A stretch of 64,000 nt of DNA from Candidatus Bathyarchaeia archaeon (GTDB lineage Archaea > Thermoproteota > Bathyarchaeia > Bathyarchaeales > Bathycorpusculaceae). The position numbers and the translations under genes were made by a program. The DNA lies in assembly GCA_049515895.1 (NCBI GenBank), contig JBEKTQ010000002.1, positions 96,001 through 160,000 of the forward strand. Reading direction: 5' to 3'. The notes beneath the pieces were generated by a model. That model saw nothing but the letters and a program-made list of their open reading frames with translations, searched no databases and had not been told where the DNA came from. Each line of letters starts with the position of its first letter. The stretch's first letter is position 1. This document shows positions 17,855-58,866 of the stretch, one piece after another.

Positions 17855-18541
17855 CTATAACTGGGCTTGGATTTGGTTGTCCTGTTGAGGCTTCTTTTCT
17901 CTCAGCAGGGGCAACACGAATTCTATGATTGCAATCAATATGATAATGATAATGATCGCGGGCAGACCCCAATGGTTATCGTGGACAAAGATTGTTACCC
18001 ACCCAAACCATGGAATGCGCATAACCACCTTGCCAACCACCATGCTTGCTGGAACTCCCGGCGGATTATTGCCGTCCCACTCGTCAAAGCCCGACTGCGG
18101 CTTCTGCGGCCATGGATTCCCGTTGCCGTCACCTTTAGTGATGAAATAAATGGTGCCGTTGACTGTTTCGGAGCTGACGATGCGGTGCACAATCAATGTG
18201 CCTGGGTCGCCTGGTTCATGAAATACTATTATGTTGCTGTAGGGGTAGTTCGTGTTCAGATCCTTGGGGTTAACTCCTTGGACGATTATGATGTCGCCCA
18301 CACTTAGGGTTCGGTCAAACGGTGTGGCTAAATTTAGCCAGAAGTTGTAGTCGGCCGCGTCGTAAGGAACGCTCATGCTGCCGCTTACGACGGTCAACGC
18401 TGGATCAGGCGTATTCAATGCTGCCCGCAACCCAAAGAATAGGCCGAAAACCACAGCGACAACCAAAATGACGGCAACCACAGTTTTGAAATACTCGTTT
18501 TTCCAAACTTTTCTTGCAGTCGTCAAGTGGTTACCTCTCAA
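17855..18541 (-). CDS. Signal peptidase I (S26, Sec11-type)
   Basis: TM, VVSGSM catalytic Ser, IVHRIV, ITKGDGN, VVGKV. Confidence 0.9.
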   Translation of the reverse strand: MRGNHLTTARKVWKNEYFKTVVAVILVVAVVFGLFFGLRAALNTPDPALTVVSGSMSVPYDAADYNFWLNLATPFDRTLSVGDIIIVQGVNPKDLNTNYPYSNIIVFHEPGDPGTLIVHRIVSSETVNGTIYFITKGDGNGNPWPQKPQSGFDEWDGNNPPGVPASMVVGKVVMRIPWFGWVTIFVHDNHWGLPAIIIIIILIAIIEFVLPLLREKKPQQDNQIQAQL

Positions 18542-18725
18542 ATTGAACTTTTAGTACAAATATACGCAAAAGGTCACGGTTAAGCATTACGGAAAAATAA
18601 TGAGAAAGTGGAAATCTTTTAAAGTCGCGGTTTTTGGATGGAAAAACATCTTATCTTGCGGAAACAGTTTTCCAGCTTTGAAAATTCGGAATTTATGGAA
18701 GCTGCAAAAATAGATTGTGCGAGTT

Positions 18726-19028
18726 TTAGTCTTTTTTGTGCTGCTTGACTATGTAGATTTCTTTGTTTCTGACTCTGAGTGCAACATTGAATTTTCTGGT
18801 AGGCAATTTGTTGTATGATTTAACTCTGAATGAGAATGGTGCGTATAATGATCTTACTGTTTTGCCCTCGACCTCGACTTTGAACATTTCCTCGGGACTT
18901 TCAATGATTTGCTTGAAAACGGCGTCGTACTCTGGAATCTTTACTCGCTTTCTACCTTCAGGTATTTCCTTTACTGGAGTAGCTTTTGCGAGTATTTTTT
19001 TGTGGATAATTTTTTCTGGATTAGACAT
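18726..19028 (-). CDS. Small basic hypothetical protein, possibly DNA-binding
   Basis: ATG at 19028; about 100 aa, Lys/Arg-rich; preceded by ACACTA repeat array. Confidence 0.65.
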   Translation of the reverse strand: MSNPEKIIHKKILAKATPVKEIPEGRKRVKIPEYDAVFKQIIESPEEMFKVEVEGKTVRSLYAPFSFRVKSYNKLPTRKFNVALRVRNKEIYIVKQHKKD

Positions 19029-19035
19029 TTGTTTC

Positions 19036-19140
19036 ACACTAAGTAACATTGTAAAACACACTATATAACACTATAGCACTAATGACACTAAAATAACACT
19101 GGTTTAGGTCAAATTATAATGACTAATAACATTATCACTA
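19036..19140. repeat. Array of ACACTA-like hexamers, 8-12 bp spacing
   Basis: Copies start at 19036, 19046 (ACATTG), 19058, 19068, 19076 (GCACTA), 19085, 19096 (ACACTG), 19135 (TCACTA). Confidence 0.75.
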
Positions 19141-19278
19141 TAATGGTCCAGATGGGCGGAAATTCCATCAAGCCTTTTCTCAAAAACAGCTCTCTATCTT
19201 CGAACCCAACGCTGCAATCTCTCCAATCGCGAAATTAACTCAGAATTTCTTTTTAGTTTTGGGTGGTTCAACTTCATT

Positions 19279-19920
19279 TTACAAAATGAGTTGGTTTTGC
19301 AGGACGTTGAGAGTCGCGGTTTTTCCAAGACGCACTTGTCGTTCACCCTTAAAAGTGGAAACTGAAGCGTTCTTGATCTGAACCGTATCACCGACTGCAA
19401 GATTGTCTGCTTGTTCATTCCACAGGCAAAGCTTAATTTTTCCAGTTTCGTCAGCTATCAACGCATTGGTCACTCTGGCGCTGTTTCCGTAACGCGTTTG
19501 AACTATTGAGGGCTTTTGAGTTTCAAGAACTTTAGCTTCTAGGTTTACTTTTTTCATTCCATGTCGGAGGTTTTGAACCATCATGGATAATTTGGGTTGT
19601 GTATTTTGTTTGTTCATCTGTCGACGAATCTTGTCGGTGTCCATCCAACTTTCGAAACAGATATCTTTTCTAAGAAGAATTTCCTCAGCAAGCCTAAACT
19701 GAACAATGACTTTGATATTTTTGGTAATTAAAAATATGGCTTCACCTTTTATTTTGCCCCGATATTCAATCGTTAAATTTTGAAGAGTGGCTTTTCCTTT
19801 TTCTTGAGCTTCAACCATGGCGTGATGAAGTTCGGGCAGGTAGACACCTTCTTTTACGGAAAGAAATGCGAGATACTCCATTATCGTTGTCTTTTTTTGA
19901 TTCAAATACCTAAACCTCAT
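19279..19920 (-). CDS. OB-fold single-stranded DNA-binding (SSB/RPA-like) protein with N-terminal extension
   Basis: VNLEAKVLE...ALIADETGKIKLCLWNEQA...VGDTVQIKNASVSTFKGERQVRLG. Confidence 0.85.
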   Translation of the reverse strand: MRFRYLNQKKTTIMEYLAFLSVKEGVYLPELHHAMVEAQEKGKATLQNLTIEYRGKIKGEAIFLITKNIKVIVQFRLAEEILLRKDICFESWMDTDKIRRQMNKQNTQPKLSMMVQNLRHGMKKVNLEAKVLETQKPSIVQTRYGNSARVTNALIADETGKIKLCLWNEQADNLAVGDTVQIKNASVSTFKGERQVRLGKTATLNVLQNQLIL

Positions 19921-20190
19921 GATTGTGTTTTTGCCAGAAACTATACTGAAATCAAGTTCGGCGCAGGGTTTATCCTTCTTAATAATCCCTACAATTATGT
20001 GTAATGTACAGCTTAGTATATAGGCTAGTTACCTGAAAATGATTCTTTCCATGCAATTTCCATTTTTAGAATCCCTTGGACATTCCCGGGTCCAATTGCA
20101 TGAAAACATCCATTGAAATGGCCCAGCCAATTCGAGCATGTTTTTATGTGATACTTCATTTAGGCTGCAGTACGACTCGGAGGAACCTTC

Positions 20191-20565
20191 ATGAAAAGTA
20201 TTGCATTAGTCGCGCATGACAATAAGAAAAAGGATATTGTTGAATGGTGCGATTTCAACAAAGGAACGTTGTCCCAGCATTGTCTTTATGCGACTGGAAC
20301 AACTGGTCAGCAGATAATTGACAAAACCGGATTGCGGATAACTCTTCTGAAAAGTGGACCTTACGGCGGAGACATGGAGCTTGGAGCTTTGATTGCCAAT
20401 AACAAACTAGATATTTTGATATTCTTTTGGGACCCTTTGGAGTCGCAACCTCATGACGTAGACGTTAAAGCTGTTCTCAGATTGGCTGTGCTCTACAATA
20501 TTCCAACCGCCTGCAACAGAGCGACAGCCAACATGATTATTTCCAGCCCCATGTTCAATAATTAG
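20191..20565 (+). CDS. mgsA: Methylglyoxal synthase
   Basis: GGAGG SD; IALVAHDNKK, ATGTTG, SGPYGGD, FFWDPL..QPHDVDVKA, ACNRATA. Confidence 0.95.
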   Translation: MKSIALVAHDNKKKDIVEWCDFNKGTLSQHCLYATGTTGQQIIDKTGLRITLLKSGPYGGDMELGALIANNKLDILIFFWDPLESQPHDVDVKAVLRLAVLYNIPTACNRATANMIISSPMFNN

Positions 20566-20976
20566 CCTGCCACGATTCTCAAGCAAGAATCACTTTTCCT
20601 TATGAACATAGACGATGCAAATAAGAAAAAGAGGGCAAACTCCTATATGTTAGACAGCAAGCATTGGATAGCAGCGATCAAATATGAACCCTGAAAACTA
20701 CAAAACAAAAAGGAAAGGACAACCCAAAGCAAGAAACTCTGCGGGTCGAGCCAAAAAACGCGCCACGATCAAACCATGGACACCAGCCGCTACTCCAAAA
20801 CTACGAGAAATCTACGCTACTAAAACTGAATGGGCAACCAAGATTATGCCTAAGCCAAAAGAGTAGATTTTGCCGGAAAACCAAATCGAAAGTTAGTTTT
20901 TAAATTTCTAATAAGATTAGAAATTAAAAGCAATTTTTATATTAAATTCTTCAAGAATAAGTGAGTAGGGATATTG

Positions 20977-21001
20977 TGGTGGGCCGAGCCGAACTTGAAT
21001 C
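20977..21001 (-). repeat. Displaced copy of tRNA-Val 3' end (att-like), including CCA
   Basis: 20979-21001 matches 32050-32072 at 21/23 nt; TGG at 20977-20979 reads CCA on the minus strand. Confidence 0.85.
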
Positions 21002-21250
21002 CAGAGGTTCAAGTCACAATAATTCTGGCAACGGTATTTCATAGAAAGCCAATCGATTTTCTAAAAAGTATGTTTGCTGGGACTCGAATCCCACGGGGCG
21101 AGTATGTTCCATAACTGAGAATGCAGTTCTGGGTCCGACTCAAACACTCAGTAACGCACCAAATATATACTGACACTACCCATAGCCTAGTCACCATGCA
21201 GATGAGAAAAAGGAACGAATGTTCTCTCTCGGCAAGTTATTGGCGGCACG

Positions 21251-24178
21251 TTGAGGCAACAAGAATTGAAAAAAATTAGAGGAAAAAAATTTACTACTAT
21301 TTTCCTCCTTGCTTTGCTTTGTTTCTCAATGGTTGCCGGGTTGTTTAAGGTTTCGTTAATTTTTATTCCTGAAGTTCATGCTACTGGCGGTGATTCTTCG
21401 CTGATAGGGAGCCTGGAAACAATCGTCAACTCAGTCGATTACGCCAATGACATAGATGACGTATATCAAGGAATGATTGTTGGGGAATCTTCAATGCAAC
21501 AATTGATAAATGCATACAATGCATTGACGACTGCAACGCTTGTTTTTCAGTGGACGCCTATACTCTCAAAACTTGGGTATGTTAATCAAACAACAATAGA
21601 ATGGGCGTTAGACAACCAACAAATGATGAGCGACGGATTACCATACACCTACTTGAACGGTTCAAAAGAAGCATTCCTCGTTTACGACAGATATATGATC
21701 CTCGCGTACGGCTATGCCATTCAATACAACTATGACTTAGCTAAGTGGAATTTGACGCAGGCATATGACAGCTTTAAAGCAGCTGTAGTTGCCAGCACGC
21801 ATCCCGCGCTTTTATGGATGGACCAAGATGGAACGCCCTATACAATATCTTATGGACCCAGATATTACGATGAATGCGGAGAGACAATTGACTGTTTCTT
21901 AGATTTCTATAACTTGGGGATAACAGCGGCGCTAAATGATTCATTATCTACTTGGCTTTGGGCAAACAACAACCTTTGGTCTGGAACAAATTACAATTAT
22001 GGTTTAAATTGGGCTGGTTACGAATGTGAAGCAGGAGGTTTCTTGCAAATCGCATTGAAACTATGGCACGCTGATAGTTTATTGCCCGACACTCAAAACT
22101 TGATAGCGGATCTAGAAAACAGGTTCCTTCAAGAGCAATTCTCTAGTCCACAATGGTTGAGCGGGGTAGTTTGCCACATGGCAGTATCTAATCCAGAACT
22201 TAGGCTTGAAAACACGGTTATGGCTTGGGCAGCGATCCTTGGAAGCTATGGAGAATTAAGCAGCACATACCAAACTGACGTACAAGACATGCTAACAGGG
22301 GCAGGAGGAACGACAACTCCAGCATGGTTAGGGCTTTTGCAAAGCTCTCTATGCGGTTCTGATTTTCCATATTTCTTAGAGCATTCAGATGATTCTGGAA
22401 CAAGTAACTACGCTACTGCTACGGGAGCCGATTTACTGTTCATGCTTGGAATTGTTCCTCAGACCGCATCTCTGGCTGTTCCGATAGAAGAGAATTCATA
22501 CGAATACATCTACAATATACTCGATCCTGAACTTTGCAATATAAACCTGAACACTAATGTTGTCACAGTATCTTTGGCTGCAGCGGGAACTTTGAACTTT
22601 CAATTCAATCAGACAGTGACTGGCAGTTTCGGTTCGCCTGGCATTTACGCTGTGCAATTCTCGTCTGATTGGAACAATTTGTTGAATATTACTTTCATAT
22701 CTGGACTGCCGTCAAACAGGCAATACATGTACACGTCACCACTTTCTTATTACATTAATTCTTCTGCTGATGCTAACGGCCTGATAAGTCCGAGCGGATC
22801 AGTAGTTGTCAATTATGGCAGCGATCAAGTCTTTACTATTGCCCCTAACGCGAACTATCACGTCGCCGATGTCGTGGTGGACGGCATCTCTGTTGGCGCG
22901 TTAACCTCGTATGTTTTCGCGAATGTTACTAGTCCTCACACAATATCAGCCAGCTTCGCGATTAACTCCTACACGATAAGTGTTACTCAGGGTGCTGACG
23001 GCCAGATCGCACCTGGAACAACCAATGTTAACTATGGTAATAGTCAAATCTTCACTATTACTCCTGCCGCTGGCTACTCTATTGCCTCTTTAATGGTCGA
23101 TGGTTCACCAGTGACGGTTGCATCATCGTATACATTCAGCAATGTCCAAGCTGCTCACTCGATCACTGCGACTTTTGCGACTAACACTTACGGTGTCACT
23201 GTTAACGTGGGCACTCACGGTTCATCAAATCTTGCTTCTCAGACAGCTGATTGGAACACGGCACTGAACTTTGTCTTTACTCCTGATTTGGGCTACAGTG
23301 TTGCCGACGTCGTAGTTAACGGGTACATTGATGAAGGCGCGGTTGCTTCTTTGAGTTTGACGATTACTGGTTCAACTATTGTCTCTGTGACGTTCGCGAT
23401 TAACACCTATTCAGTCACTGTTGCTCAGAGTACTGATGGCCAGATTGCCCCTCTAACAAGTGTTGTTACCTATGGCGCTACTCCAAGCTTCACTATTACG
23501 CCAAACGCCGGTTACCACATTGCGAGCATAACTGCTAATGATGCGTTAGTGAATGTTACTTCGCCTACGGGTCAAACTTACCAATTTAATTCGATATCGA
23601 CTGATAGTTCATTGACCGCGACTTTCGCGATTAACACGTACGCAATTACTGTTACTCAGACTGCTAACGGTGTTATTTCTCCCAATACGGTCACTGCTAA
23701 CCACGGCATCACTCAAAGCTTCCAAATTACTCCCGCCACTGGCCACCATATCACCAGCGTAACCGTTGATGGTTCTCCAGTGGCTGTTACATCATCTTCG
23801 GGTCAAACCTTTAGCTTCACCAACATTCAGGCAAACCACACAATCACTGCGACTTTCGCGATTGACTCCTTCAATATTACTTCTTCTGCTGGAGCTGGCG
23901 GCTCTATCGGCCCAAGTGAATCTATTAGCGTTAACTATGGTGACAATCAAACTTTCGCCATAACTCCCAATACTGGTTATTACATAGTTGAGGTTAGGGT
24001 GAATGGAAGTTCAGTTGGCGCGGTTAGCTCATACACGTTCAACAATGTTCAAACTGCATACACCATCTCGGCAACGTTTGCACTATCACCAACAATCTAT
24101 TGGATAGCGGTTGCCATAGTCATCGGGGCAATCGCAGCAGTTGTACTCTATTGGTCAAGAAAATTTGACTGCGCTTAG
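21251..24178 (+). CDS. Large cell-surface protein: putative alpha-helical catalytic domain, about six beta-sandwich (InlB-B-like) repeats and C-terminal TM
   Basis: N-terminal hydrophobic segment; repeats of G.ISP...VNYG..Q.F.ITP..GY.I..V.VDG...YTF.NV...HTI.ATFA; C-terminal TM. Confidence 0.85.
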   Translation: MRQQELKKIRGKKFTTIFLLALLCFSMVAGLFKVSLIFIPEVHATGGDSSLIGSLETIVNSVDYANDIDDVYQGMIVGESSMQQLINAYNALTTATLVFQWTPILSKLGYVNQTTIEWALDNQQMMSDGLPYTYLNGSKEAFLVYDRYMILAYGYAIQYNYDLAKWNLTQAYDSFKAAVVASTHPALLWMDQDGTPYTISYGPRYYDECGETIDCFLDFYNLGITAALNDSLSTWLWANNNLWSGTNYNYGLNWAGYECEAGGFLQIALKLWHADSLLPDTQNLIADLENRFLQEQFSSPQWLSGVVCHMAVSNPELRLENTVMAWAAILGSYGELSSTYQTDVQDMLTGAGGTTTPAWLGLLQSSLCGSDFPYFLEHSDDSGTSNYATATGADLLFMLGIVPQTASLAVPIEENSYEYIYNILDPELCNINLNTNVVTVSLAAAGTLNFQFNQTVTGSFGSPGIYAVQFSSDWNNLLNITFISGLPSNRQYMYTSPLSYYINSSADANGLISPSGSVVVNYGSDQVFTIAPNANYHVADVVVDGISVGALTSYVFANVTSPHTISASFAINSYTISVTQGADGQIAPGTTNVNYGNSQIFTITPAAGYSIASLMVDGSPVTVASSYTFSNVQAAHSITATFATNTYGVTVNVGTHGSSNLASQTADWNTALNFVFTPDLGYSVADVVVNGYIDEGAVASLSLTITGSTIVSVTFAINTYSVTVAQSTDGQIAPLTSVVTYGATPSFTITPNAGYHIASITANDALVNVTSPTGQTYQFNSISTDSSLTATFAINTYAITVTQTANGVISPNTVTANHGITQSFQITPATGHHITSVTVDGSPVAVTSSSGQTFSFTNIQANHTITATFAIDSFNITSSAGAGGSIGPSESISVNYGDNQTFAITPNTGYYIVEVRVNGSSVGAVSSYTFNNVQTAYTISATFALSPTIYWIAVAIVIGAIAAVVLYWSRKFDCA

Positions 24179-24197
24179 TCAAGAAACCTTAACGAGA

Positions 24198-24208
24198 AGC
24201 CTTTTATC
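24198..24208 (+). promoter_or_regulatory. BRE/TATA-like element AGCCTTTTATC starting 35 nt before ATG
   Basis: Identical 11-mer at identical spacing precedes the paralog at 44618. Confidence 0.65.
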
Positions 24209-24232
24209 ACTAACGGTTTATCAATACTTAAT

Positions 24233-26605
24233 ATGACTGGCGTAGGCAAAAGTTTCTCATTAATCCTGATTCTAATAATAACTTTCTCAACTCTAATAAC
24301 GATTGATTATGCACCCGCCGGCATGGCTCAAAGTGGCACAAGCGTAGGTGGCGTAATCAGTTCAGATACTACTTGGGCGCAAGCTACCAGTCCGTACAAT
24401 CTCACATCGCCTGTAATAGTGAGCAATGGGGCAACCTTAACCATCGATGCCGGTGTAACCGTGAACCTTAATGGTTATAATATACAAGTAAACGGAATTC
24501 TTAACGCACGGGGCAGCAGCAACAATAACATAGTCTTTAGTTCATCTGGTAGTGGAAGTATTGTCTTCACGGCAAGTAGCACAAGCTGGAATGAACAAGC
24601 AGCTAGTGGCTGCATAATTGAAAACTCTATTCTAAATCTCGTCTCGATAACCACCAGCAGTACTTCTCCAAAAATTAACAATAACACAATTACGTATTCT
24701 TACAACTCTGGTGGAATTGCAATTTCAGCAACCAGTGGCTCACCCATAATTTCAAACAATAGTGTTACCGGGGATATTGAAAGCATAAATGATGCTTCTC
24801 CGACAATAATCAACAATTTTGTTGTCGGTGGAATATGGGGTACTGGGTTGCTTGAAAGCACACCTGTAATTATGAATAATACTGTAAAAGGCGGAGCAAC
24901 TATAAGCTATTATTTGGGTACTGGAATCAGAGCTGACGGAAGCAATGTGTACATAGCCGGCAACACCGTCTTTGATTGTGCTACCGGCATTAACGTGTAT
25001 GATGGCACGTCAGTAATTGAAGGAAATTTGGTTATTGACAACGCAAAAGGAATAATTTTAACAGGGCCCATGTCAGCAGTATCAACAACAATTCAACATA
25101 ATTCAATCGTTTACAATACTGTTGGACTTAGTAGTTCTGGTAATCTTGGCTCTGTAACCATCTCATACAACAACATCCTAAACAACTCGCAATATAGCAT
25201 AGGTGTAAATGTCGCCTCTAATTGGTGGGGAACGACTGACCAGCAAGCAATCGCCCAGATACTTTCTGGTTCAGGTAATTTTGTGCCTTTCTTGAATGCA
25301 CCTGACCCGGGGGCTCCAGCGATTCCTAGTCAAAATCCAGCACCCGCTCCAACTCCAACGCCGAGTCCAACATCAAGTCCTTATCCAACACCTACTCTTT
25401 CACCAACTGCAACACCAACACCAACACCAACGCCAACCCCAATATCTACGCCAACTCCAACACCAACATCGGCACCACAAATCTTCACTCAAGCCTCCCT
25501 TAATGTTATGCCTAACCCTGTAGGTGTCGGTCAGATAGTTACCATTACTTTTGGGCTTAACCAATTGCCACCAACTGGATTTTTGTGGAATAACATAACG
25601 ATTAGAATTACGTATCCGGATGGAACTTCTGTAAGATTAGGACCATTTACCACGGGGGCAAATGGGCAAACATCAACGTTATTCACGCCTACCCAAGTTG
25701 GCAATTTCACTCTTCAGGCGCTCTTTCCAGGCCAAACTATTGCAGGCGCATATTATGAACCCTCCAACAGCAATGCATTTGCTCTCGAAGTGCAACAACA
25801 ACCACAACAGAGTCCTACCCCTTCACCGGTTCCTACGACAACCCCGATTCCGACACCAACGCCCTCACCTACAGCATCTCCAACTCCCGTGCCAACGCCG
25901 CCAGTGCCGACCTTATCATTCTATTGCATAAGTTCCACGACAACTTCTGGGTTTACCGTTCAAATTCAGGGATCATTGACACATAATGGAATAGGCTTAT
26001 CTGGTGATGGAATACAACTTTCAGACAGTGTCACGGGCGGAGTCACTTGGCAAGACTTAACTTATGTTAACACGGATGATAATGGAAGTTTCTCTGTTTC
26101 ATGGTATCCCTCTGCCTCAGGTAATTACGCTATTAAAGCTATATGGTCAGGCGACAACAACTATTCAAGTGCAAGTGCGACATACAATTTTGCAATTGCA
26201 CCGTTCAATAATCAAAATCAAAATGTTTTTTCTGTTACTTCAAATTCGACGCTTACGAGCTTAACGTTTGACTCAGCAACAAACGAGTTAAGCTTCGGCG
26301 TCTCTGGATCTTCAGGAACGACAGGGTTTACAGAAGTTTGCATTCCACGATCACTTGTCACTGATATTTCAAAGCTCAACGTCATGTTAGACGGCACTAC
26401 AGTCAGTTATGATTCCGTATCGAAGGGTAACGTTTGGATAATAACTTTTACTTATCACCACAGCAGCCACACAATAGTCATAGCACTTGAATCGTCCTCT
26501 GTCCCAGAATTTCCATCATCAGCAATATTGTCGCTGTTCATTGTAGCAGCAGTGTCCATTACAGCTGCGCTTGCGCTTAGAAAACGAAAAAAAGAGGAAA
26601 GCTAA
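24233..26605 (+). CDS. Exported right-handed beta-helix/Ig-like surface protein with Pro/Thr linkers and PEF-CTERM-like sorting signal
   Basis: Signal peptide, SDTTW, Asn-ladder repeats, NWWGTTD, two PT-rich linkers, VPEFP plus TM plus RKRKK. Confidence 0.88.
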   Translation: MTGVGKSFSLILILIITFSTLITIDYAPAGMAQSGTSVGGVISSDTTWAQATSPYNLTSPVIVSNGATLTIDAGVTVNLNGYNIQVNGILNARGSSNNNIVFSSSGSGSIVFTASSTSWNEQAASGCIIENSILNLVSITTSSTSPKINNNTITYSYNSGGIAISATSGSPIISNNSVTGDIESINDASPTIINNFVVGGIWGTGLLESTPVIMNNTVKGGATISYYLGTGIRADGSNVYIAGNTVFDCATGINVYDGTSVIEGNLVIDNAKGIILTGPMSAVSTTIQHNSIVYNTVGLSSSGNLGSVTISYNNILNNSQYSIGVNVASNWWGTTDQQAIAQILSGSGNFVPFLNAPDPGAPAIPSQNPAPAPTPTPSPTSSPYPTPTLSPTATPTPTPTPTPISTPTPTPTSAPQIFTQASLNVMPNPVGVGQIVTITFGLNQLPPTGFLWNNITIRITYPDGTSVRLGPFTTGANGQTSTLFTPTQVGNFTLQALFPGQTIAGAYYEPSNSNAFALEVQQQPQQSPTPSPVPTTTPIPTPTPSPTASPTPVPTPPVPTLSFYCISSTTTSGFTVQIQGSLTHNGIGLSGDGIQLSDSVTGGVTWQDLTYVNTDDNGSFSVSWYPSASGNYAIKAIWSGDNNYSSASATYNFAIAPFNNQNQNVFSVTSNSTLTSLTFDSATNELSFGVSGSSGTTGFTEVCIPRSLVTDISKLNVMLDGTTVSYDSVSKGNVWIITFTYHHSSHTIVIALESSSVPEFPSSAILSLFIVAAVSITAALALRKRKKEES

Positions 26606-26729
26606 CATAAGTGAAGAACCACTTTTGTGTTGTCGTACGGTTTCAAAGAATAAAGTAAAGTCGATTCAAAAAGTAGAGCACTCCTCTCCTGGGGAAAAGA
26701 CGCTAAAATAAACAGATTTTGGAATTAAG

Positions 26730-26752
26730 GTGGGCCGAACCGAACTTGAACC
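26730..26752 (-). repeat. Second displaced copy of tRNA-Val 3' end (att-like)
   Basis: GTGGGCCGAACCGAACTTGAACC matches 32050-32072 at 21/23 nt. Confidence 0.85.
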
Positions 26753-26964
26753 CAAACCAGGTAGAGCGAAAACACTCATGGCCATTACACAGTTTTGTGT
26801 AATTTTGGGGGGAGGCCTCGGGTCTTGGCGTTCGCTAACCGGGCTTATTTTGAGTTCTAAACCGTCTTAGCTGACAGAAAAATGACGCAGGCAAATTCTT
26901 CTTCTTGCAAATCATTGCACAAGTGCTTATAAACGTCCGTTGAGATGATGCCCTTCTCCGCCGT

Positions 26965-28084
26965 CTAAAACCTGTTGTATACCCTCTTGAAGCAGAGCAT
27001 AATGCTAATCACCTTAGTGGAAAACGGAATGGGTCCTAGACATCTGAAGCCAAGCTCCAACTCATTTGGAGCCAAATTCCCATAGAGACCCATACTAGAC
27101 AAGGTTCGGGTCCGGTGGGGCTCGTAGAAATATGAGCGAAAAGGTACTAATTTTATGGGTCGTTTCATAACCTCTCTTTTGATTAGTTCCTTCAGTTCGT
27201 GGCCTAGTAGTGTTAGCTGATGGTTCTCTGTTTGTTCATGGGTTTCTGTTATGTTGCCTCTTATTAATGCGTCTCTGCTTAAGATTTCCTCTGGGTTTTC
27301 TCCCCAGGCGCGTATGATTTCTTTGAGTTGTTCGATGCGGTTTAGTTGTGTTTTGGGTCGGATTGCAAGTCCAGCTGTTACATATAGGCTACGCAGTTTG
27401 TCTACTCCTAGACTCTGCACGTCCTCGTAGGTGCCGATGGTGTGGCCCATCCTATAAAGGATGTTTTCTGTATCGATTTTTGCGGTGCTAAGTTGGCTTC
27501 TGAAGAATTTCCTAAGACTATGAGTTCTGACGCTGTACATCCAGCTGGCGGGGGAGTTTCTTGGCGATTTTAGCGTTAACAGCTAAGTCATGGACGATTT
27601 TTCTAATGGTTTTCTCGCTAACGCCCAATATCTTATTGGTTATGTGCTCGTTTCTGATCAGCGGTGATTCGACGGTTAATTCTTCTGGAGGCATAGATCT
27701 ACCTCCTCTGCGTCGATCCTCCAAATAGAGTTTTAGCAGTTGGCACGCCTCAGCGTTTATGAAGGTGTCATAGTCATGGTATTTGCCCTTGGTTATGGCT
27801 GCTTCAACATGAATGTGGATAGGTACTCGTCCGGCTTCTAGATCTTCTTTTACGTGTCGGTACTTGAGTTTTGCAAAGGTTCCCTCTATGAAACCGCCTG
27901 TCGTTATGGCTGAGACAATGAAGGCTTCTCTGAATGCAGCTTTATCCAGCATGGTCGCGACTTCTTCTGGTTTAGGAGCTCTGTCTTTGAAGGCTGCTTT
28001 TCGGCTAAGTGGCTCGTTAAGTTCGACTTTTTTTACTCCGTTAGCTCGGTAGAAGGTTTTAACGGTTTTTATGCAGCGCTTCAT
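26965..28084 (-). pseudogene. Decayed tyrosine recombinase/integrase
   Basis: Two overlapping ORFs joined by a frameshift at the G5 run 27550-27554; ITKGK, HSLRK, MGH and a downstream Tyr; GGF-I-EG where the catalytic Arg is expected; N-terminus missing. Confidence 0.88.
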
Positions 28085-28253
28085 TCCGCACGCGTGCGCT
28101 CTGGCAATTGATCAAGCGCTGAGAATCTTTATAAGATTGATACAACTCCTAGAAAAGTCGGGAAGAAGTACCTAACTTCATTCTTGCTTATTCTCGAAAT
28201 AACAACTATAGTCTAGTGTATTTCTTCACCCAAGAAAAGGAGAAAAAAGAAAA

Positions 28254-31022
28254 ATGAAAACGCTAAAAAACAAAATTGCAGCCATGACGATTTCGATATT
28301 CTTTATACTTTCAATGACAGCTTCAATGACGCTAATACCAAATGCTAACGCACAAACTCTAGCACCGGGTAAGATAGATATTCAAACCTACGCTTTCATT
28401 CATTGCGGGCCTAATCCAATAGGCGTCGGCCAAACAATCACCGTCGGCTTCTGGATTAACATTCCTCCTCCGACAGCAAGCGGTCCATACGGCGATAGAT
28501 TTACCGGCATGAAGGTTACTGTTACAGCGCCTGATGGAACCAACACTACACTAGGACCGTTTACTTCTGATGACACAGGAGGAACATCTACTACATACAC
28601 TCCTACTGCTACTGGTACGTACAACTTCCAAATGAGCTATCCAGGACAATATTTGACAGGGGGTCCGAACGGCCTCATCCCGACGGCCACCGCGACAATC
28701 AAAGCGTTCGTCGGTGATTACATGGAGCCAGCCATTAGTAATATTTTCTCAGTTACAGTGCAGCAGGCACCAGTAGGAGGAGTCTCAGTAGCTCCTCTTC
28801 CGACATCTTACTGGCAGACACCAATAAATGCAATGAACGTCAATAACTGGTACGTTCTTGGCGGTGCATCCCTTGATGCTGGTGGATACACCACGATTTC
28901 AGGTTCAGCCTATAACGCTTCCTCAAACTATAACCCTTACACTACAGCGCCTCTAACTTCTCACATACTTTGGACAAAACCCGTCGCGTTTGGAGGGGTA
29001 CTCGGAGGGCAATTCGGCGGTACAACAACCTACGGCAATTATTACTCCACATCACAGTACGAAAAAAGATTTGAGCCTATAATAATTAACGGATATCTAT
29101 ACTACACACAACACCCAGGAAGCTCAACCAATCCGACGGCCAACGTTTGCTTAGACTTGTACACTGGACAAACAGTATGGACTGACGATTCCTCCAACTA
29201 CGGCGGCGGTTCTCCAGCGCAAACAGCCCTAACCTCAGCGGGCGTGGTAACGCCTCTATACTTCGGCCAAATACTTGATTTCGTCTCGCCTAACCAGTTC
29301 GGTGGCCTCGCATATCTATGGACTGAAGGAACACTAGCCGGAATGGTCTCGACTGGAACCACATACAACATGTTTGATGCTATGACGGGCAAATACATTC
29401 TGAGCATTGTAAACGGTACTACCATGGGGGCTTCAGGTGCGCCAGGTCCTAACCCTGATAGTGCTGGCAACATGATTGGCTACTATGTTAATAATACCGC
29501 CGGCACACAAGCAGTCATGGGCATAATCAATGACAACATCGGACCATCACCGACAGCGGTTACTATTAGCGGTCCCGCGTTGGAGATGTGGAACTCAACA
29601 GAATGCATTCTGGCAGGAGCATGGGCTACCCAAGCATCGGGCTGGCAATGGAGACCTCCACAAGATGGCGTAATTCCGTTTTCGGGTGGTATAGTGTGGG
29701 CAGTGGCACTTCCTACTAGCATTTCAGGTAACGCAGTGCAGAGTCCGTGGGGGATAGTAGCTGATAGCGATGCAATTGTTCTGAGCTCCTACTCTAGCAC
29801 AAGCGTATCCTCGTACTACATCCCAGGATGGATCCTTTACGCAGGCTACAGCATGACGACAGGGCAACGGCTATGGATAGAAAATGTAACAATTGCACCG
29901 TGGGCTGGAAACGTTAATACTGGATACGCTAGTGGTGACGGCGTTTTTACACTAGCTCTAAAAAGTGTTTACGCAGTAAACGGCTACAGTCAGACTACGG
30001 GAGCGCTGCTTTGGACAACTCAACTCACTGGCGCCAATGGAGCGACCCCTGACAGTTACGACACCGTTGGCGGCTACACTGACGTCATCGCCAACAACAC
30101 TCTTTACTATGCAGGCTTTGGCGGAGACATATGGTCAATAAACATGGCAAATGGAAAAATCAACTGGTACACCAACACAACAGCGCTTCAAGGTCACTCT
30201 GGCACTAACAGTCCCTATGACGTGTGGCCAATATGGGTCTTCGCTGAAGGAGGCGTTGCTGACGGCGTTCTATTCTTGGCAGAGGGACATGAATACAGTC
30301 CGCCGCTATTCCTCGGAGCACAGCAGCTGGCTATCAACTGCACCAACGGGAAACTAGTATGGAGCATAGATGCCTTCGACGTTGACGGCAATCCAACCAC
30401 CGCGTATGGCGTCATGATGGCCCTAAATGCATACGATAACCAAATTTACGCGTATAGCATGGGACCCAGCAAAACTACTATCAGTGCGCCTCAAGTAGGC
30501 ATAACAACTGCAACACCAATAACAATTACAGGTTCAGTCATGGATATTTCGGCAGGCTCATCACAGCAGGCAGTCGCAAAAGCCTTCCCCAACGGATTGC
30601 CATGCGTATCTGACGCTAGCATGTCCGCGTTCATGGAAGCAGTCTATATGCAGCAGCCGATGCCAACTAGCATAACCGGAGTCCCAGTTACAGTATACGT
30701 CTTAGACAGCAACCACAATTACCGTTCAATTGGCACAACCACGACTAACGCAAACGGTTTCTACAGCCTTGCATGGACGCCTGACATCACGGGTAACTAT
30801 ACTGTCACCGCCGTCTTTGCGGGCACAGACGCATACTATGGGTCTTCCGCCAATGCAGCCTTCTACGCCACTTTACCAGCGGCAACAACCGCACCGACAG
30901 CAACACCAGCGACAGGGTTAGCATCCAACACAACCGTCATATACGGCATCGTAGCAATCGCCATCATCATAGTCGTCATCGGCGCAGTACTCGCAATACT
31001 CGTCACAAGAAAACACCCATAA
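28254..31022 (+). CDS. Large exported PQQ-like propeller/Ig-like surface protein with C-terminal TM
   Basis: Signal peptide, PNPIGVGQ Ig-like domain, HILWTKP, TG...W propeller blades, GLPCVSDASM, C-terminal TM plus RKHP. Confidence 0.88.
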   Translation: MKTLKNKIAAMTISIFFILSMTASMTLIPNANAQTLAPGKIDIQTYAFIHCGPNPIGVGQTITVGFWINIPPPTASGPYGDRFTGMKVTVTAPDGTNTTLGPFTSDDTGGTSTTYTPTATGTYNFQMSYPGQYLTGGPNGLIPTATATIKAFVGDYMEPAISNIFSVTVQQAPVGGVSVAPLPTSYWQTPINAMNVNNWYVLGGASLDAGGYTTISGSAYNASSNYNPYTTAPLTSHILWTKPVAFGGVLGGQFGGTTTYGNYYSTSQYEKRFEPIIINGYLYYTQHPGSSTNPTANVCLDLYTGQTVWTDDSSNYGGGSPAQTALTSAGVVTPLYFGQILDFVSPNQFGGLAYLWTEGTLAGMVSTGTTYNMFDAMTGKYILSIVNGTTMGASGAPGPNPDSAGNMIGYYVNNTAGTQAVMGIINDNIGPSPTAVTISGPALEMWNSTECILAGAWATQASGWQWRPPQDGVIPFSGGIVWAVALPTSISGNAVQSPWGIVADSDAIVLSSYSSTSVSSYYIPGWILYAGYSMTTGQRLWIENVTIAPWAGNVNTGYASGDGVFTLALKSVYAVNGYSQTTGALLWTTQLTGANGATPDSYDTVGGYTDVIANNTLYYAGFGGDIWSINMANGKINWYTNTTALQGHSGTNSPYDVWPIWVFAEGGVADGVLFLAEGHEYSPPLFLGAQQLAINCTNGKLVWSIDAFDVDGNPTTAYGVMMALNAYDNQIYAYSMGPSKTTISAPQVGITTATPITITGSVMDISAGSSQQAVAKAFPNGLPCVSDASMSAFMEAVYMQQPMPTSITGVPVTVYVLDSNHNYRSIGTTTTNANGFYSLAWTPDITGNYTVTAVFAGTDAYYGSSANAAFYATLPAATTAPTATPATGLASNTTVIYGIVAIAIIIVVIGAVLAILVTRKHP

Positions 31023-31290
31023 ACGGCAAAACCAAACAAAAACATCAACTTCCCCTTTTTTAGTCCTTCAAAAATAATGGAGAGAAAATGGGGCTGAATA
31101 GGCTCTGGTTAAATCTAACAATCAAAGGCAAAAGCTGCAGTTGAACAATTTGCATTTAATCTTTTCTTCTTAAAATTCGGGTCCAGAGCCCCAGCAAACC
31201 CATTTTTACTTAATTGAAGATCTTTTTAATTAGCATAATTTTGGCAATTTTTTGAAATTAAAAATAGTTTTTACACAGTCTCAGGCAGGT

Positions 31291-31980
31291 TCAAGCCGCA
31301 AAGATTATCGGGTATATTTCTTTAGTGATGTATTCGGTGTATTTGTTTTTGTCTGCGGTGTTGAATATGGTGACCGATGCGTCTCGGGTGATGCCAACGA
31401 CATATCCAGTTTCTTTGGATTTGGCGACGATGTACCAGAGTTTGCCATGTTTAGTGTAGTCGTCGAAGAGCTGGGTGTTTGAAAGGTCTGGTCCGTACAG
31501 TGACAGTTTGTCCACGTTGGGTATGTCTACATCGTCAAAGAAGGTTATCTTTGTGCCTTCGGGGTTCTTGAGGTGGAACTCTTTTATGGTTTCAGGCGTG
31601 ATGCAAGCTTCGACTATAATGCCGACTTTTTCAAAGAGGACTTCTCCGAGTTTGTTGGCGACGAAGTTGGCGATGCGTTTCCTTTCGACCACCGTTAGAA
31701 ATGTTGTACCCTGAATTTTGGAGAAACTGAACATGGCTTCGATAGTTTGAGGCAAGGGTGCTCGTGTCCCTCGGTGGAAAGCGTATGTTACGTAGTCATT
31801 CGAGTAGACGCCATTGAGCATGTTCGCTTTCTGCTGAAGACCTACTACTTCACTTATGAGCGTAAAATTATTGTTGCCTTCCTCAAATGGCGTTTCAACG
31901 TGGTAACCGTTAAGATTCGAGGCAATATCAGCTATCGACATAGGTTGGGAGACCGTAAAAATTTTCCCAGCAACAACCAT
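31291..31980 (-). CDS. Conserved archaeal hypothetical protein
   Basis: 229-aa ORF; FFDDVDIPNVDKLSLYGPDL...HGKLWY...VVGITRD pattern. Confidence 0.8.
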   Translation of the reverse strand: MVVAGKIFTVSQPMSIADIASNLNGYHVETPFEEGNNNFTLISEVVGLQQKANMLNGVYSNDYVTYAFHRGTRAPLPQTIEAMFSFSKIQGTTFLTVVERKRIANFVANKLGEVLFEKVGIIVEACITPETIKEFHLKNPEGTKITFFDDVDIPNVDKLSLYGPDLSNTQLFDDYTKHGKLWYIVAKSKETGYVVGITRDASVTIFNTADKNKYTEYITKEIYPIIFAA

Positions 31981-32050
31981 AACCGTTTCCCGCGAATATA
32001 ATGGTAATTGCGGATGCTTAAATATTGTTTCGGCTTGAACCTATTGAGAG

Positions 32051-32125
32051 TGGGCCGAGCCGGACTTGAACCGGCGACCTTTGGCTCGTAAAGCCAACGT
32101 CCTAACCAAGCTAGACGACCGGCCC
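32051..32125 (-). tRNA. tRNA-Val (anticodon TAC), CCA not encoded
   Basis: GGGCCGG/TCGGCCC acceptor stem, TTGGC-TTTACGA-GCCAA anticodon arm, GCCGG-TTCAAGT-CCGGC T arm. Confidence 0.96.
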
Positions 32126-32217
32126 GCACAATTTGCTTATTCAAGGCTTGATTGAAGCTGTGTGTATTATGAAACTAAGTTGGTTCCATATTAGAATTTT
32201 CGTTGGGCTAAAGCCAA

Positions 32218-33147
32218 CTACGCTTTAGATTTTGCTTTTGCAGTGTTGAACGTTACCATGAAGACGCCTATGAAGATCAGGATTGCGCCCGCGATGACTG
32301 AAGGGTAGAGGACTTCGTTGATAAACATCACGGCGAAAACCGCAGTTATTAAGGGCTCGGCGAACAGAAATGTGCTTGCTGTTGCTCCCGCTTTCTTGAG
32401 CACGTAGAACCAGATGAAGTACCCGAGCAGCGAGCAAGTTGAAGCCAGGTACAATATACTTAACCAATCGTTGAGGGTCATGCTAAAGAGCTGCATGAAG
32501 GAGCCTTCAGCAAGCGAAAACGGCATTAGGCATGCTCCTCCAAGCAGGCTGACGTAGGCGACCACGAGGAAGGCATCGTATTTCTGCATGATTTTTTGCC
32601 CCAGCAAACTGTAGGTCGCCCACATGATGGGAGTTGAAAGCAAAATCAAGGTGCCGATTAAGAAGTTCATGCTTCCCTCAAGATTTAGGAGGTCAGCTAA
32701 GACAACGAGCAATGTGCCAGCGGCAGCAATTGCGATGCCGATGATCTGCTTTTTTCTCAACTGGTCGCCGAACAGCCTAGCCGAGAAAATAGTGATCAAT
32801 ATGGGCGACAGAAGGCAAACCATAATTGCGGCTATTGAGGCTCCAGCGAGCTGAATCCCCGTGTACTGTACGGTGAAAAAAAACGTTACGCCGGTAAGCG
32901 CTAGCGCCAGCAAAACCAGCAGGTCTTTCCGCTCGATGCTTAGTCGGTAAGCTGGGCTCACCCGCTTCTTTAAAGCCAGCGCGACAAGGAAGAGTGCACC
33001 TGCTAAAAGAAACCGAAAAGTTGCTACTGCGATGGGCGTCAATCCATCATCCAGAAGCTGCTTGACAACCACGAAGGAGCTTCCCCAGAAAATAATCAGC
33101 AAAACCATTAAGAAAGCCTGAAAAGGACTGATTGAACGGGAAGCCAT
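32218..33147 (-). CDS. DMT/EamA family transporter
   Basis: About 10 TM helices, FWGSSFVVVK, FRF, duplicated EamA halves. Confidence 0.92.
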   Translation of the reverse strand: MASRSISPFQAFLMVLLIIFWGSSFVVVKQLLDDGLTPIAVATFRFLLAGALFLVALALKKRVSPAYRLSIERKDLLVLLALALTGVTFFFTVQYTGIQLAGASIAAIMVCLLSPILITIFSARLFGDQLRKKQIIGIAIAAAGTLLVVLADLLNLEGSMNFLIGTLILLSTPIMWATYSLLGQKIMQKYDAFLVVAYVSLLGGACLMPFSLAEGSFMQLFSMTLNDWLSILYLASTCSLLGYFIWFYVLKKAGATASTFLFAEPLITAVFAVMFINEVLYPSVIAGAILIFIGVFMVTFNTAKAKSKA

Positions 33148-33286
33148 GCGTCAAAATACGGCCGATTGCCTTTTAAGCGTTAAACCCGCCTCAATTGATT
33201 TTAACATGAAAAGGCAGATGAGCCCTTAGTTTGTTTGAGACGGATTTATATATCAAGCTGAACTTAGCTTTTTTAGGTGAACAATT

Positions 33287-33745
33287 TTGGTTTCTCAAAA
33301 ACTTTTAGATTATTTAAACAAAGCCATAGCTCGCGAACTCCAAGTCAGCATTCAGTACATGTGGCAGCACGTACAAGTTACAGGGTTGGACGGCGCTATC
33401 GTGGAAGACATTTTCCGCAAGATAGCTATCGCTGAAATGAAGCATGCCGAACGCTTAGCTGAACAGCTCGACTACCTCAACGGCGTGCCCACAACCCAGC
33501 CTGAACCCATTTTTGTCGGCGGCAGCCTCGTCGAAATGCTCAGGCAGGACCAGGTTGAGGAGGAGGTAGCCATCGAGCTCTATAAGGAGGCAATACAGGT
33601 TGCGCATCAAGAGGGCGACTACACCACAAGACGGTTGCTTGAAGAGATTCTGGCGGATGAGGAAACGCACATTAACACTTTTGGTAAGCTGCTTGTCGGC
33701 ATGACGGAACCATTCACACAACCAGGAACATCCCAATTGGGATAA
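33287..33745 (+). CDS. Bacterioferritin/ferritin-like diiron protein
   Basis: ARELQVSIQY, EMKHAE, EEVAIELY, DEETH ferroxidase pattern. Confidence 0.9.
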   Translation: MVSQKLLDYLNKAIARELQVSIQYMWQHVQVTGLDGAIVEDIFRKIAIAEMKHAERLAEQLDYLNGVPTTQPEPIFVGGSLVEMLRQDQVEEEVAIELYKEAIQVAHQEGDYTTRRLLEEILADEETHINTFGKLLVGMTEPFTQPGTSQLG

Positions 33746-33933
33746 CAAAACAAATGTCTATGGTCAGCCAAACTTAAGCTTAGAAGTACGACAAGCATTT
33801 TTTGTTTGTTGTTGTTCTACTTTTAATAATCCAAATTAATAGCTATCAATATGTCTCTCGTTTCGCCAATTCTAATGTTCCATAAGGCTCAAGCAATACA
33901 CATATATCAACGCGGGCAGATGGGTGTTGTTCA

Positions 33934-35748
33934 TTGGTGCCAAGCTTGGATGATTCTGTTTTTTTGAGATGCCCAGTTTGTGGAATCCAGATAGATACGG
34001 AGAACTTGGCATCAAGAATCGAAGCGGCGTGCGAAAGTTTCGGGGGCAAAAAACACTGTTTCTGCAGCGAAAACTGTCGACGACACTTTCTAGAAGACCC
34101 CCGAATTGCGTACTTCTCAATGGAAATCGGTATTTCAAGTAAAATGCCGACGTACAGCGGCGGATTAGGAGTCTTAGCGGGGGACATAGTGAAATCCAGC
34201 GCGGACCTGCGACTGCAGATGGTGGCCATCACACTTGCAAGTAGAAAAGGTTACTTCAGACAAAAACTCACTGAGCATGGGGACCAGCTTGAGTTTCCTG
34301 ACGAGTGGGACCCAGCGAAAACCTTAACTCGTATGCCCAATGTTGTCACCGTAACCATTGAAGGTCGCCCCGTCAAAGTGCAAGCTTGGCTTCATGAGTA
34401 CCAGAGCCCTACGGGGGGTATGGTGCCAATTCTCTTTCTGGACACCGATATGGAAGAGAACTTTCCTGAAGACAGAAGGATCACAGATTCATTGTACGGC
34501 GGCGACAAAAGCTACAGGCTAAAACAAGAGATCGTTCTTGGCATTGGCGGCACTAAACTCCTAAGGAACTTGCCCTTCAAAATCCGAAAGTACCACATGA
34601 ACGAAGGTCACTCCAGCCTACTGACACTTGAACTGCTGAAAGAGAATGACATGGACGCCGAAAAAGTGCAAAACCTATGCGTTTTCACAACGCACAGCCC
34701 GGTGGAAGCCGCATTCGATCAGTTCTCATATGAACTTGTCCAGCAAATGCTTGACAAAGAATACCCATTGGCTGAAATGAAGCAGTATGCGGGAACAGAA
34801 AACCTCAACATGGCTTTCCTATCATTAAACTTAAGTAAATACATAAACGGCGTTTCCATGGCGCACGTGGATTATTCTAGAAAACTTTTTCCAGGTCGTT
34901 ACATTCGAGCGGTTACAAACGGAGTCCATTCTGCCACATGGACGAGCCTTTACTTCAGGCAGCTTTTCGACAAATACATTCCGGGCTGGACTAACGAACC
35001 CATACTTCTTGCTAGAGCCAGCGAGATTCCGAACCGAGAAGTTTGGGACGCCCACTATAAAGCGAAAACGGACCTACTGACTTTTGTTGAAAAAACCAAT
35101 GGGGTAACATTGGATCCTCAAGCTTTGACAATTGGCTTTGCTAGAAGAGCCACAGGATATAAACGTGCAACTCTCATTTTCACCGACCTGCATAGGCTAA
35201 CAGACATCAATCGGAAAGAAAAAATCCAAATGATATTCGCTGGAAAAGCACACCCAAAAGACATTGACGGAAAGAAGCTCATAAGGCAAATCCACGATTA
35301 CGCTCGTACACTGAAAGACCAAGTAAAGATAGTTTACTTGGAGAATTATGACATGGACATCGCGGCGAAACTGACTTCAGGCGTTGACGTCTGGCTGAAC
35401 ACGCCTTTACCGCCTTTTGAGGCTTCCGGAACCAGCGGTATGAAAGCTGCCCACAACGGTGTCGTAAACTTCAGTGTCCTCGATGGTTGGTGGATGGAAG
35501 GCTGCATCGAAGGTGTGACTGGCTGGGCAATAGGTCCACACCCAAGAGAATTGTTTGCTGAAAGTGAGAGAAGAGAACTAGAACTCCAAGATCTCTACAG
35601 CAAACTCGAATACCTAATAGTTCCAACATTCTACACGCAGAAAGATGCTTGGATAAATCTTATGAAAAACTCTATCGCAAAAATAGCCTACTACTTCGAG
35701 ACCCAATGGGTTGTGCGAAGATACATCACGGAAGCCTACCTCATCTAA
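33934..35748 (+). CDS. glgP: Alpha-glucan (glycogen/maltodextrin) phosphorylase with N-terminal YHS/TRASH-like domain
   Basis: AYFSMEIG, YSGGLGVLAGD, HMNEGH, FARRATGYKR, EASGTSGMKA; N-terminal CPVCG...FCSENC..HF. Confidence 0.92.
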   Translation: MVPSLDDSVFLRCPVCGIQIDTENLASRIEAACESFGGKKHCFCSENCRRHFLEDPRIAYFSMEIGISSKMPTYSGGLGVLAGDIVKSSADLRLQMVAITLASRKGYFRQKLTEHGDQLEFPDEWDPAKTLTRMPNVVTVTIEGRPVKVQAWLHEYQSPTGGMVPILFLDTDMEENFPEDRRITDSLYGGDKSYRLKQEIVLGIGGTKLLRNLPFKIRKYHMNEGHSSLLTLELLKENDMDAEKVQNLCVFTTHSPVEAAFDQFSYELVQQMLDKEYPLAEMKQYAGTENLNMAFLSLNLSKYINGVSMAHVDYSRKLFPGRYIRAVTNGVHSATWTSLYFRQLFDKYIPGWTNEPILLARASEIPNREVWDAHYKAKTDLLTFVEKTNGVTLDPQALTIGFARRATGYKRATLIFTDLHRLTDINRKEKIQMIFAGKAHPKDIDGKKLIRQIHDYARTLKDQVKIVYLENYDMDIAAKLTSGVDVWLNTPLPPFEASGTSGMKAAHNGVVNFSVLDGWWMEGCIEGVTGWAIGPHPRELFAESERRELELQDLYSKLEYLIVPTFYTQKDAWINLMKNSIAKIAYYFETQWVVRRYITEAYLI

Positions 35749-58764: not shown

Positions 58765-58866
58765 AGCGGGGTGGGGTAGCCAGGATTAACCCGCTGGGCT
58801 CATAACGGCGCATTGTCGCTGTGAGACACCCAGAGATCACTAGTTCAAATCTAGTCCCCGCTACCA
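58765..58866 (+). tRNA. Initiator tRNA-Met (CAT) with 23-nt intron at 37/38 (58805-58827), CCA encoded
   Basis: A1:U72 pair, AGCGGGG/CCCCGCT stem, GGG/CCC anticodon stem, CTCA/TGAG BHB-type helix. Confidence 0.93.

Follow-up and report, generated by a model that had tools for sequence, protein, structure and literature searches.

What a transfer RNA (tRNA) gene followed by displaced copies of its own 3' end, with large surface-type proteins in between, records about the past of a genome is the question raised by a locus of Candidatus Bathyarchaeia. The locus lies in a window of 64,000 nucleotides (nt) (contig JBEKTQ010000002.1, positions 96,001 to 160,000), the stretch of DNA analyzed here and to which all plain coordinates refer; the genome holding it (G000) comprises 3.18 Mb in 53 contigs, and the other G numbers denote relatives. 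A preliminary description of this DNA had proposed an integron-like system, in which small cassettes of surface genes flanked by attachment (att) sites stack at the tRNA and diversify the cell surface. In our analysis the locus is better read, with a probability of roughly three in four, as the fossil remains of mobile elements that integrated in tandem at the 3' end of tRNA-Val(TAC).

Displaced tRNA-Val ends and the integrase remnant

Two copies of the tRNA-Val 3' end lie 5320 and 11071 nt from the tRNA gene, all three sites being in direct orientation (Table 1). When the window was searched with a 21-nt pattern, the only three matches were positions 20979 to 20999, positions 26730 to 26750 and the tRNA itself (32050 to 70), and 100 shuffled sequences gave none. 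A 24-mer allowed up to six mismatches recovered the same three sites alone in the 64 kb and nothing in 30 shuffles; at that tolerance (6/24), no further degenerate copy was present to the left of the array. Both copies span the T-loop to the discriminator base and carry CCGAAC in place of CCGGAC, and the 3' tails read ACCA in the distal copy, ACCT in the middle copy and ACTC in the tRNA gene. The copies are confirmed as the preliminary description had given them, including their spacing, orientation, shared substitution and tails. No homology between the flanks of the copies was seen outside the tRNA-derived part. A T-arm-like stretch at about 21080 to 21105 was also considered and was rejected by eye, its stem being unpaired.

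The same tRNA was examined in 13 congeners with 17 kb of downstream sequence and in G004, the closest relative (n = 14). Of the 14, 7 carry the tRNA-Val 3' end in one or two further copies, and the other 7 carry none within 17 kb. The copies measure 44 to 46 nt in G014, G011, G010, G020 and G004 and are degenerate in G021, while the copy in G003 and both copies in G000 are about 24 nt long, these three being mismatched at the same position. The cargo consists of a PLD nuclease in G003, a cyclophilin and a PIN protein in G021, an ATPase_2 protein in G004, a propeller protein in G010, and SSV-type integrases in G011, G014 and G020, the last of which also holds a TIR protein. The enclosed content is different in every genome, and the site is a recurrent hot spot. 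This variable content, seen at the level of species, supports the part of the preliminary description that had elements stacking at tRNA-Val through tyrosine-recombinase integration.

In most of the displaced 3'-end copies the last letters are ACCA (G014, G011, G010, G020 and the distal copy of G000), and several of the present tRNA-Val genes end differently, which suggests that the ancestral gene encoded CCA and was later given element-supplied ends. Elsewhere in G000, two islands of 5.5 to 6.6 kb (C2:174708-181500 and C4:113633-120306) are bounded by 32- to 46-nt tRNA-Thr(GGT)/tRNA-Arg(TCT) copies. In both, an open reading frame (ORF) reads across the att copy, as in the SSV-type layout, and neither holds a large surface gene. 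Many additional tRNA 3' fragments are scattered over the genome.

Inside the array lies the remnant of a tyrosine recombinase whose full-length homologs in congeners measure 503 and 682 amino acids (aa). The remnant has lost its N terminus, and its first residue corresponds to about residue 197 in the 503-aa homolog. Aligned with these homologs, it retains the HxxR...H...Y motif and has lost the catalytic Arg, with GGFIEG where three homologs have G(A/G)FREG. Moreover, the reading frame shifts near positions 27518 to 27540, after KKLP, and the stop codon is mutated, CGA standing at positions 27160 to 27162 where the homologs have TGA. The homologs match integrase PHROGs (E = 2e-8) and archaeal XerA (E = 5e-9) and score below the Pfam Phage_integrase cut-off (22.9 versus 27.1 bits); against solved structures, no match below E = 0.4 was obtained. 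Members were found in 50 of the 80 congeners, and this predicted integrase family of about 500 aa is widespread in Bathyarchaeia and divergent. An intact paralog in G000, to which the preliminary description had looked, did not turn up, as the only matches to the family at E ≤ 1e-30 are two fragments in the window. The genome encodes six more distant recombinase candidates of 413 to 466 aa, five of which match Phage_integrase.

To what these integrases are joined was classified at 80 loci from public genomes, all of them Bathyarchaeia-type records. A sense copy of a tRNA 3' end, 12 to 18 nt long and 28 to 113 nt past the gene, follows the integrase at 41 loci and a complete antisense tRNA gene at 23; the remainder have an antisense fragment (3 loci), nothing of at least 12 nt (9 loci) or too little sequence to score (4 loci). 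The att occurs in both orientations relative to the integrase gene, even among the members specific for tRNA-Asn. The closest relative of the remnant (L047/L086) belongs to a complete element of about 7 kb, which reads tRNA-Asn, about 6 kb of small hypothetical ORFs, integrase, a 42-nt spacer and a 17-nt copy of the tRNA-Asn end. The order in the window matches it, with a copy, an integrase pointing at that copy, cargo and then the tRNA, and the att core lies about 40 nt past the mutated stop codon of the remnant. This layout, an integrase followed by a spacer of about 40 nt and 12 to 18 nt of a tRNA 3' end, could be used to delimit integrated elements in Bathyarchaeia.

Repeat M and its joints

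Two features missed by the preliminary description, a repeat named M and a second att core, lie between the middle tRNA-Val copy and the integrase remnant. M is the sole unusual part of the locus. It is present in six copies in G000, at 91 to 96% identity, and in none of the 80 congeners searched. It has no conserved ORF, the sole candidate being disrupted by a 1-nt indel among the copies. M was also considered as an RNA gene and rejected, as Rfam at E ≤ 1 over positions 20000 to 33000 gave tRNA only and the fold z-scores of the two strands were -1.4 and -1.8.

At one end of M, a 7-nt spacer (CAAACCA on the plus strand, in the region of 26753 to 26756) joins the repeat to the middle tRNA-Val copy. 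The M copy on contig C22 occupies 423 bp between tRNA-Ala(CGC) and a 25-nt direct copy of that tRNA's end, with no recombinase, and its far end reads CGCTCTACC, 7 nt, att. Because the window has the identical junction, the middle tRNA-Val copy belongs to the M junction. Among the other M copies, one abuts tRNA-Thr and two carry a tRNA-Ala-like fragment as expected of a circle junction. The copies on C13, C20 and C32 have a further 30 to 50 nt in common; no repeats flank them, and the DNA around them is ordinary intergenic sequence. A precise empty site for M at tRNA-Ala(CGC) was found in neither G003 nor G009, where homology ends at the 3' end of the tRNA.

At the other end, the integrase's native spacer leads into the core CCCCACCGGACCCG (alignment A4), in which the CC..CGGACCCG positions are invariant in all nine sequences. 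This core matches the 3' end of tRNA-Arg(TCT), and the tRNA-Lys(TTT) version takes its place in one M copy. Past the core, the window continues as the body of M, whereas the relatives in the same alignment each go on into flanking sequence of their own. The joint between the integrase element and M thus falls exactly on an att core, the signature of site-specific recombination.

As a separate observation, a 26-nt palindrome, GGATTCGCTTAAATAATTAAGCGAGTCC, stands directly 5' of Arg- or Lys-type tRNA 3'-end fragments. It was seen in G000 at C12:14213, C26:23127, C1:125774, C2:249 and C10:8864, in the M copies, and at L099:4611; one instance stands 30 nt downstream from a gene for tRNA-Arg(GCG), and in a different species another comes after an integrase's att copy. 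The palindrome may serve as a binding site, act as a TATA-like element or represent a T-loop insert.

Genes of the array and origin of the cargo

The features of the locus are collected in Table 1. The gene content, three large surface-type proteins, one hypothetical protein and one dead integrase, is as the preliminary description had stated. By eye, each of the large proteins has a hydrophobic N terminus, a C-terminal hydrophobic stretch and a basic tail, and from these ends all three are predicted to be exported and anchored at the C terminus. The genes have their own upstream regions, and the array is without a replication gene. Just outside it, the MGS-like gene holds the same position relative to the degenerate tRNA-Val copy in G021.

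Table 1. Features of the tRNA-Val(TAC) locus, in window coordinates
Feature	Position	Strand	Remarks
MGS-like gene	20191..20565	+	Host flank just outside the distal copy
Distal tRNA-Val 3'-end copy	20979..20999	-	T-loop to discriminator, then CCA; outer array boundary
975-aa surface-type protein	21251..24178	+	InlB B-repeat/Flg_new_2
790-aa surface-type protein	24233..26605	+	Right-handed beta-helix/NosD, Ig-like domains, PEFP and hydrophobic C terminus
Middle tRNA-Val 3'-end copy	26730..26752	-	7-nt spacer to the end of M
Repeat M	26757..27124	-	About 370 bp, non-coding
Second att core CCCCACCGGACCCG	27107..27120	-	tRNA-Arg(TCT)/Lys-type 3' end; alignment A4
Dead tyrosine recombinase	27160..28084	-	
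922-aa surface-type protein	28254..31022	+	PQQ_2 beta-propeller and Ig-like domains
229-aa conserved protein	31291..31980	-	Without family assignment
tRNA-Val(TAC)	32050..32125	-	Integration target, attB/attL side; ARAGORN, Rfam tRNA (62.9 bits)

The 229-aa gene, which the preliminary description had taken for a host gene, looks imported. Of 151 genomes of the order, 112 carry it; for other members of the genus, the count was first 0 of 12 and then 2 of 80. The copy in G213 has 86% protein identity, with 85% DNA identity over positions 31295 to 32021, and sits 0.77 kb 3' of tRNA-Gly(TCC). Because the distribution is patchy and a copy stands beside a different tRNA, the gene was probably imported on a tRNA-targeting element. 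At 10 loci in other genera, no tRNA was found within 1.5 kb of its homologs. Across 13 sequences, the family has a mean column identity of 81%, and it has no match in Pfam, PHROGs or NCBIfam; the AlphaFold2 model built with 13 homologs reached a mean predicted local distance difference test (pLDDT) score of 45, too poor for a fold search.

The three surface genes are members of large host paralog families and lie in a recombination-prone zone. They may have come in on elements or by rearrangement, and nothing links them in particular to the att sites. The 922-aa protein is one of dozens of paralogs in G000; Bathy-6 genomes hold the most PF13360 (PQQ_2) genes among archaea, as stated in PMC11697101, and the protein belongs to this Bathy-6 expansion. 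We also analyzed the positions of the surface families. In G000 they occupy 42 loci, of which 7 are within 10 kb of any of the 36 tRNA genes called by ARAGORN, and 500 random placements gave a mean of 8.5, with 390 of the 500 reaching at least 7. Near intact integrases of the family, a surface-family gene lies within about 9 kb at 7 of 80 loci, which by estimate is no more than genomic density predicts. Searched in G000 with up to two mismatches, the att motif matches the three sites of this locus and two on other contigs, both within tRNA genes (tRNA-Ile and tRNA-Val(CAC)). These counts do not support the surface-gene-specific cassettes of the preliminary description, nor its expectation that the motif is enriched beside surface genes. 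The view of tRNA-linked cassettes as a driver of surface-protein diversity is left without support, and the expansion of PQQ propellers needs another explanation.

Comparison of the 975-aa gene in L044 (9755-12712) with the window (20979-24178) places an inversion breakpoint between the upstream region of the gene and the tRNA-Val copy, and an att-associated inversion would fit the arrangements in G000 and G004. To the left of the array, a 228-aa ORF (17855 to 18541, minus strand) matches archaeal signal peptidase I (TIGR02228, 63 bits), and a homolog of this ORF lies 4 kb from an integrase in L091. At 58765 to 58866, ARAGORN reports a 102-nt 'tRNA-???' with a 4-nt anticodon, which may be an intron-containing archaeal tRNA; several further tRNA genes of G000 seem to have been missed by ARAGORN in the same way, as split matches.

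Peat and wetland metagenome runs contain this stretch, and contigs from four runs (of four studies; one run may be the source of the assembly) were compared with positions 18500 to 34500; such assembled contigs drop rare variants. The distal copy is bridged without differences by X1 (20367-22047) and X2 (20362-22242), as is the middle copy (X1, 25553-26786; X2, 25553-26736), and X2 only spans from the 922-aa gene to the tRNA (29619-32080). The array structure is identical in contigs from two to three studies. One X1 contig joins 26757 to 31289, which would drop M, the integrase remnant and the 922-aa gene, so that from the middle copy to the tRNA only the 229-aa gene would remain; this joint has a depth of 6.1 against about 40, a 25-nt side and 'GA' in between, and is too short to trust. 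Another joint, which goes back from 31024 to 28235, fits tandem paralogs elsewhere in G000.

Proposed history, rival explanations and known systems

When the circle of a tyrosine-recombinase element recombines its attP with the 3' end of a tRNA gene, a mechanism established for such elements, the tRNA is rebuilt, and the previous 3' end, together with everything behind it, is pushed outward. Under this process, at least three integration events are probably recorded at the locus. The oldest would be bounded by the distal copy at 20979, and an M-type element would have produced the middle copy at 26730. An element of a type of roughly 7 kb, carrying a 503-aa-family integrase, would have recombined at the Arg/Lys-type att core inside M, as the joint at 27107 to 27120 indicates. 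Later deletions and point mutations would then have removed the N terminus, catalytic Arg, frame and stop codon of the integrase as well as the core genes of the element, leaving an array that is presumably now immobile. The 229-aa gene probably arrived on such an element.

Several observations weigh against this history. The distal interval holds no element-type gene, the repeat being the only sign of an element origin there, and the differences of the tRNA-Val copies from the tRNA are of the C-to-T type and could be decay rather than attP signatures. In G004, the 975-aa ortholog has 78% DNA identity, and the flanking host genes have 72 to 80%. Its divergence is thus host-like, so the gene was at the locus before G000 and G004 split, and any transfer would be old; in G004 it stands beside tRNA-Val, inverted, outside the interval bounded by the 46-nt copy. 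The reciprocal joint expected from integration into M, an att core with the palindrome beside the tRNA, is absent, and a later, unobserved deletion must therefore be assumed. The contigs of the four runs showed no att-to-att joint, excision product or empty site. Finally, the relatives are separate species at about 70 to 80% DNA identity, and the hot spot is accordingly seen between species and not between strains.

How far a working system could explain the same structures was also weighed. The integron-like platform of the preliminary description, on which surface-gene cassettes would be captured at tRNA-Val and shuffled in trans, gains something from the single-gene intervals bounded by att without an integrase in relatives (1.4 kb with the PLD nuclease in G003, 1.2 kb with the ATPase in G004 and 5 kb with the propeller in G010), from at least five intact distant tyrosine recombinases in G000, and from propeller-type surface genes flanking tRNA-Val in G010 and G023. 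We nevertheless consider it very improbable, as no intact integrase of the family resides in G000, attI- or attC-type sites are lacking and the genes point in mixed directions, each with its own upstream region. Moreover, nowhere else in G000 does the motif lie beside surface genes, surface loci are not enriched near tRNAs or family integrases, the 975-aa ortholog of G004 falls outside the att-bounded interval, the complete relative (L047/L086) carries only small hypothetical ORFs, and contigs from two to three studies hold the same structure. A reading of the copies as tRNA-Val pseudogenes or decayed partial duplicates, with no relation to mobile elements, is scarcely credible. Partial tRNA genes are reported to be common and often misannotated in prokaryotes (PMC9897764), but each copy has the extent of an att site, T-loop to discriminator, the stretch between the two contains an integrase remnant and a repeat joined at att, and tRNA-Val 3'-end copies in relatives adjoin SSV-type integrases.

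A further explanation, which we regard as unlikely, concerns M itself. It may be a live, non-autonomous and gene-less mini-element of about 0.45 kb with one tRNA-like att at its end and a second inside, moved in trans by resident integrases; its internal tRNA-like core would serve as a secondary landing site, and M would seed and extend arrays. The close identity of the six copies and their lack in 80 congeners would then reflect recent amplification; the 25-nt tRNA-Ala repeats around one copy, the copy abutting tRNA-Thr, the two circle-junction-like copies and the joining of the integrase remnant to M exactly at the att core also agree with it. However, neither a circle nor an empty site was seen, the homology in relatives stopping at the tRNA-Ala 3' end. 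The C13, C20 and C32 copies, without flanking repeats, would fit a passive repeat or one resembling miniature inverted-repeat transposable elements (MITEs) equally well, and M could be arm sequence left by several related elements. If M did move in this way, it would be a portable secondary attB, and arrays would gain elements nested in M in addition to those at the tRNA itself. It would also represent an archaeal, integrase-driven counterpart of MITEs and of the cis-mobilizable elements (CIMEs), helping to trap genes such as the 229-aa ORF.

With the fossil array as the preferred reading, the locus can be set beside known systems. With integrons it has in common no more than the notion that cassettes accumulate where recombination uses a single site. 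Integrons have intI next to attI, folded attC sites, a common promoter and co-oriented cassettes, whereas here none of these is present and the recombinase is dead and internal to the array. As for attC sites, the boundaries are tRNA 3'-end copies, and the M region has no significant fold. The CIMEs of streptococci are att-flanked segments without their own recombinase, derived from integrative and conjugative elements (ICEs); they carry genes. The M copy at tRNA-Ala is likewise att-flanked and without a recombinase, but it is about 0.4 kb long, non-coding, archaeal and of candidate mobility only. SSV-type (class I) elements, which are present in relatives and at other loci of G000, also target tRNA genes, with an att of 44 to 46 nt and an ORF across it. 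Their integrase is split into int(N) and int(C), in contrast to the integrase of the window, which is unsplit, with the att after the stop codon and tRNA-Val copies of about 24 nt.

In Prochlorococcus islands, as described in 10.1101/2020.12.28.424599, partial tRNAs stand between stacked and degenerated elements and newer elements push older ones outward. These tycheposon islands share with our locus the successive integrations next to a tRNA, the partial-tRNA separators, the fragmented integrases, the scattered partial tRNAs and an adaptive cargo. They are bacterial, with defined replication modules and, in that source, demonstrated excision, whereas here there is no replication gene and no sign of activity. 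In the archaea themselves, the locus resembles the tandem arrays formed by 'gene capture'. For archaea, PMC8371274 and PMC6563490 describe how elements integrate in tandem at one site and how the integrase is lost once integration has taken place; the traits in common are a tRNA 3' end repeated directly, a single site used again and again, newer elements closer to the tRNA, and an integrase decay that traps cargo. What differs here is the host, a Bathy-6-type Bathyarchaeon, together with a divergent 503-aa-family integrase below the Pfam threshold, an att of about 13 to 24 nt past the stop codon, and one joint placed inside a small repeat and not in the tRNA. A literature search on mobile elements of Bathyarchaeia turned up surveys of viruses and proviruses, and large islands are all that is mentioned in one paper on Bathy-6 genomes. 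Overall, the evidence supports ordinary tandem integration followed by decay, a known process for which the locus offers a new, dissected example of gene capture at a tRNA, in a class that is poorly studied and whose mobile elements have barely been described.

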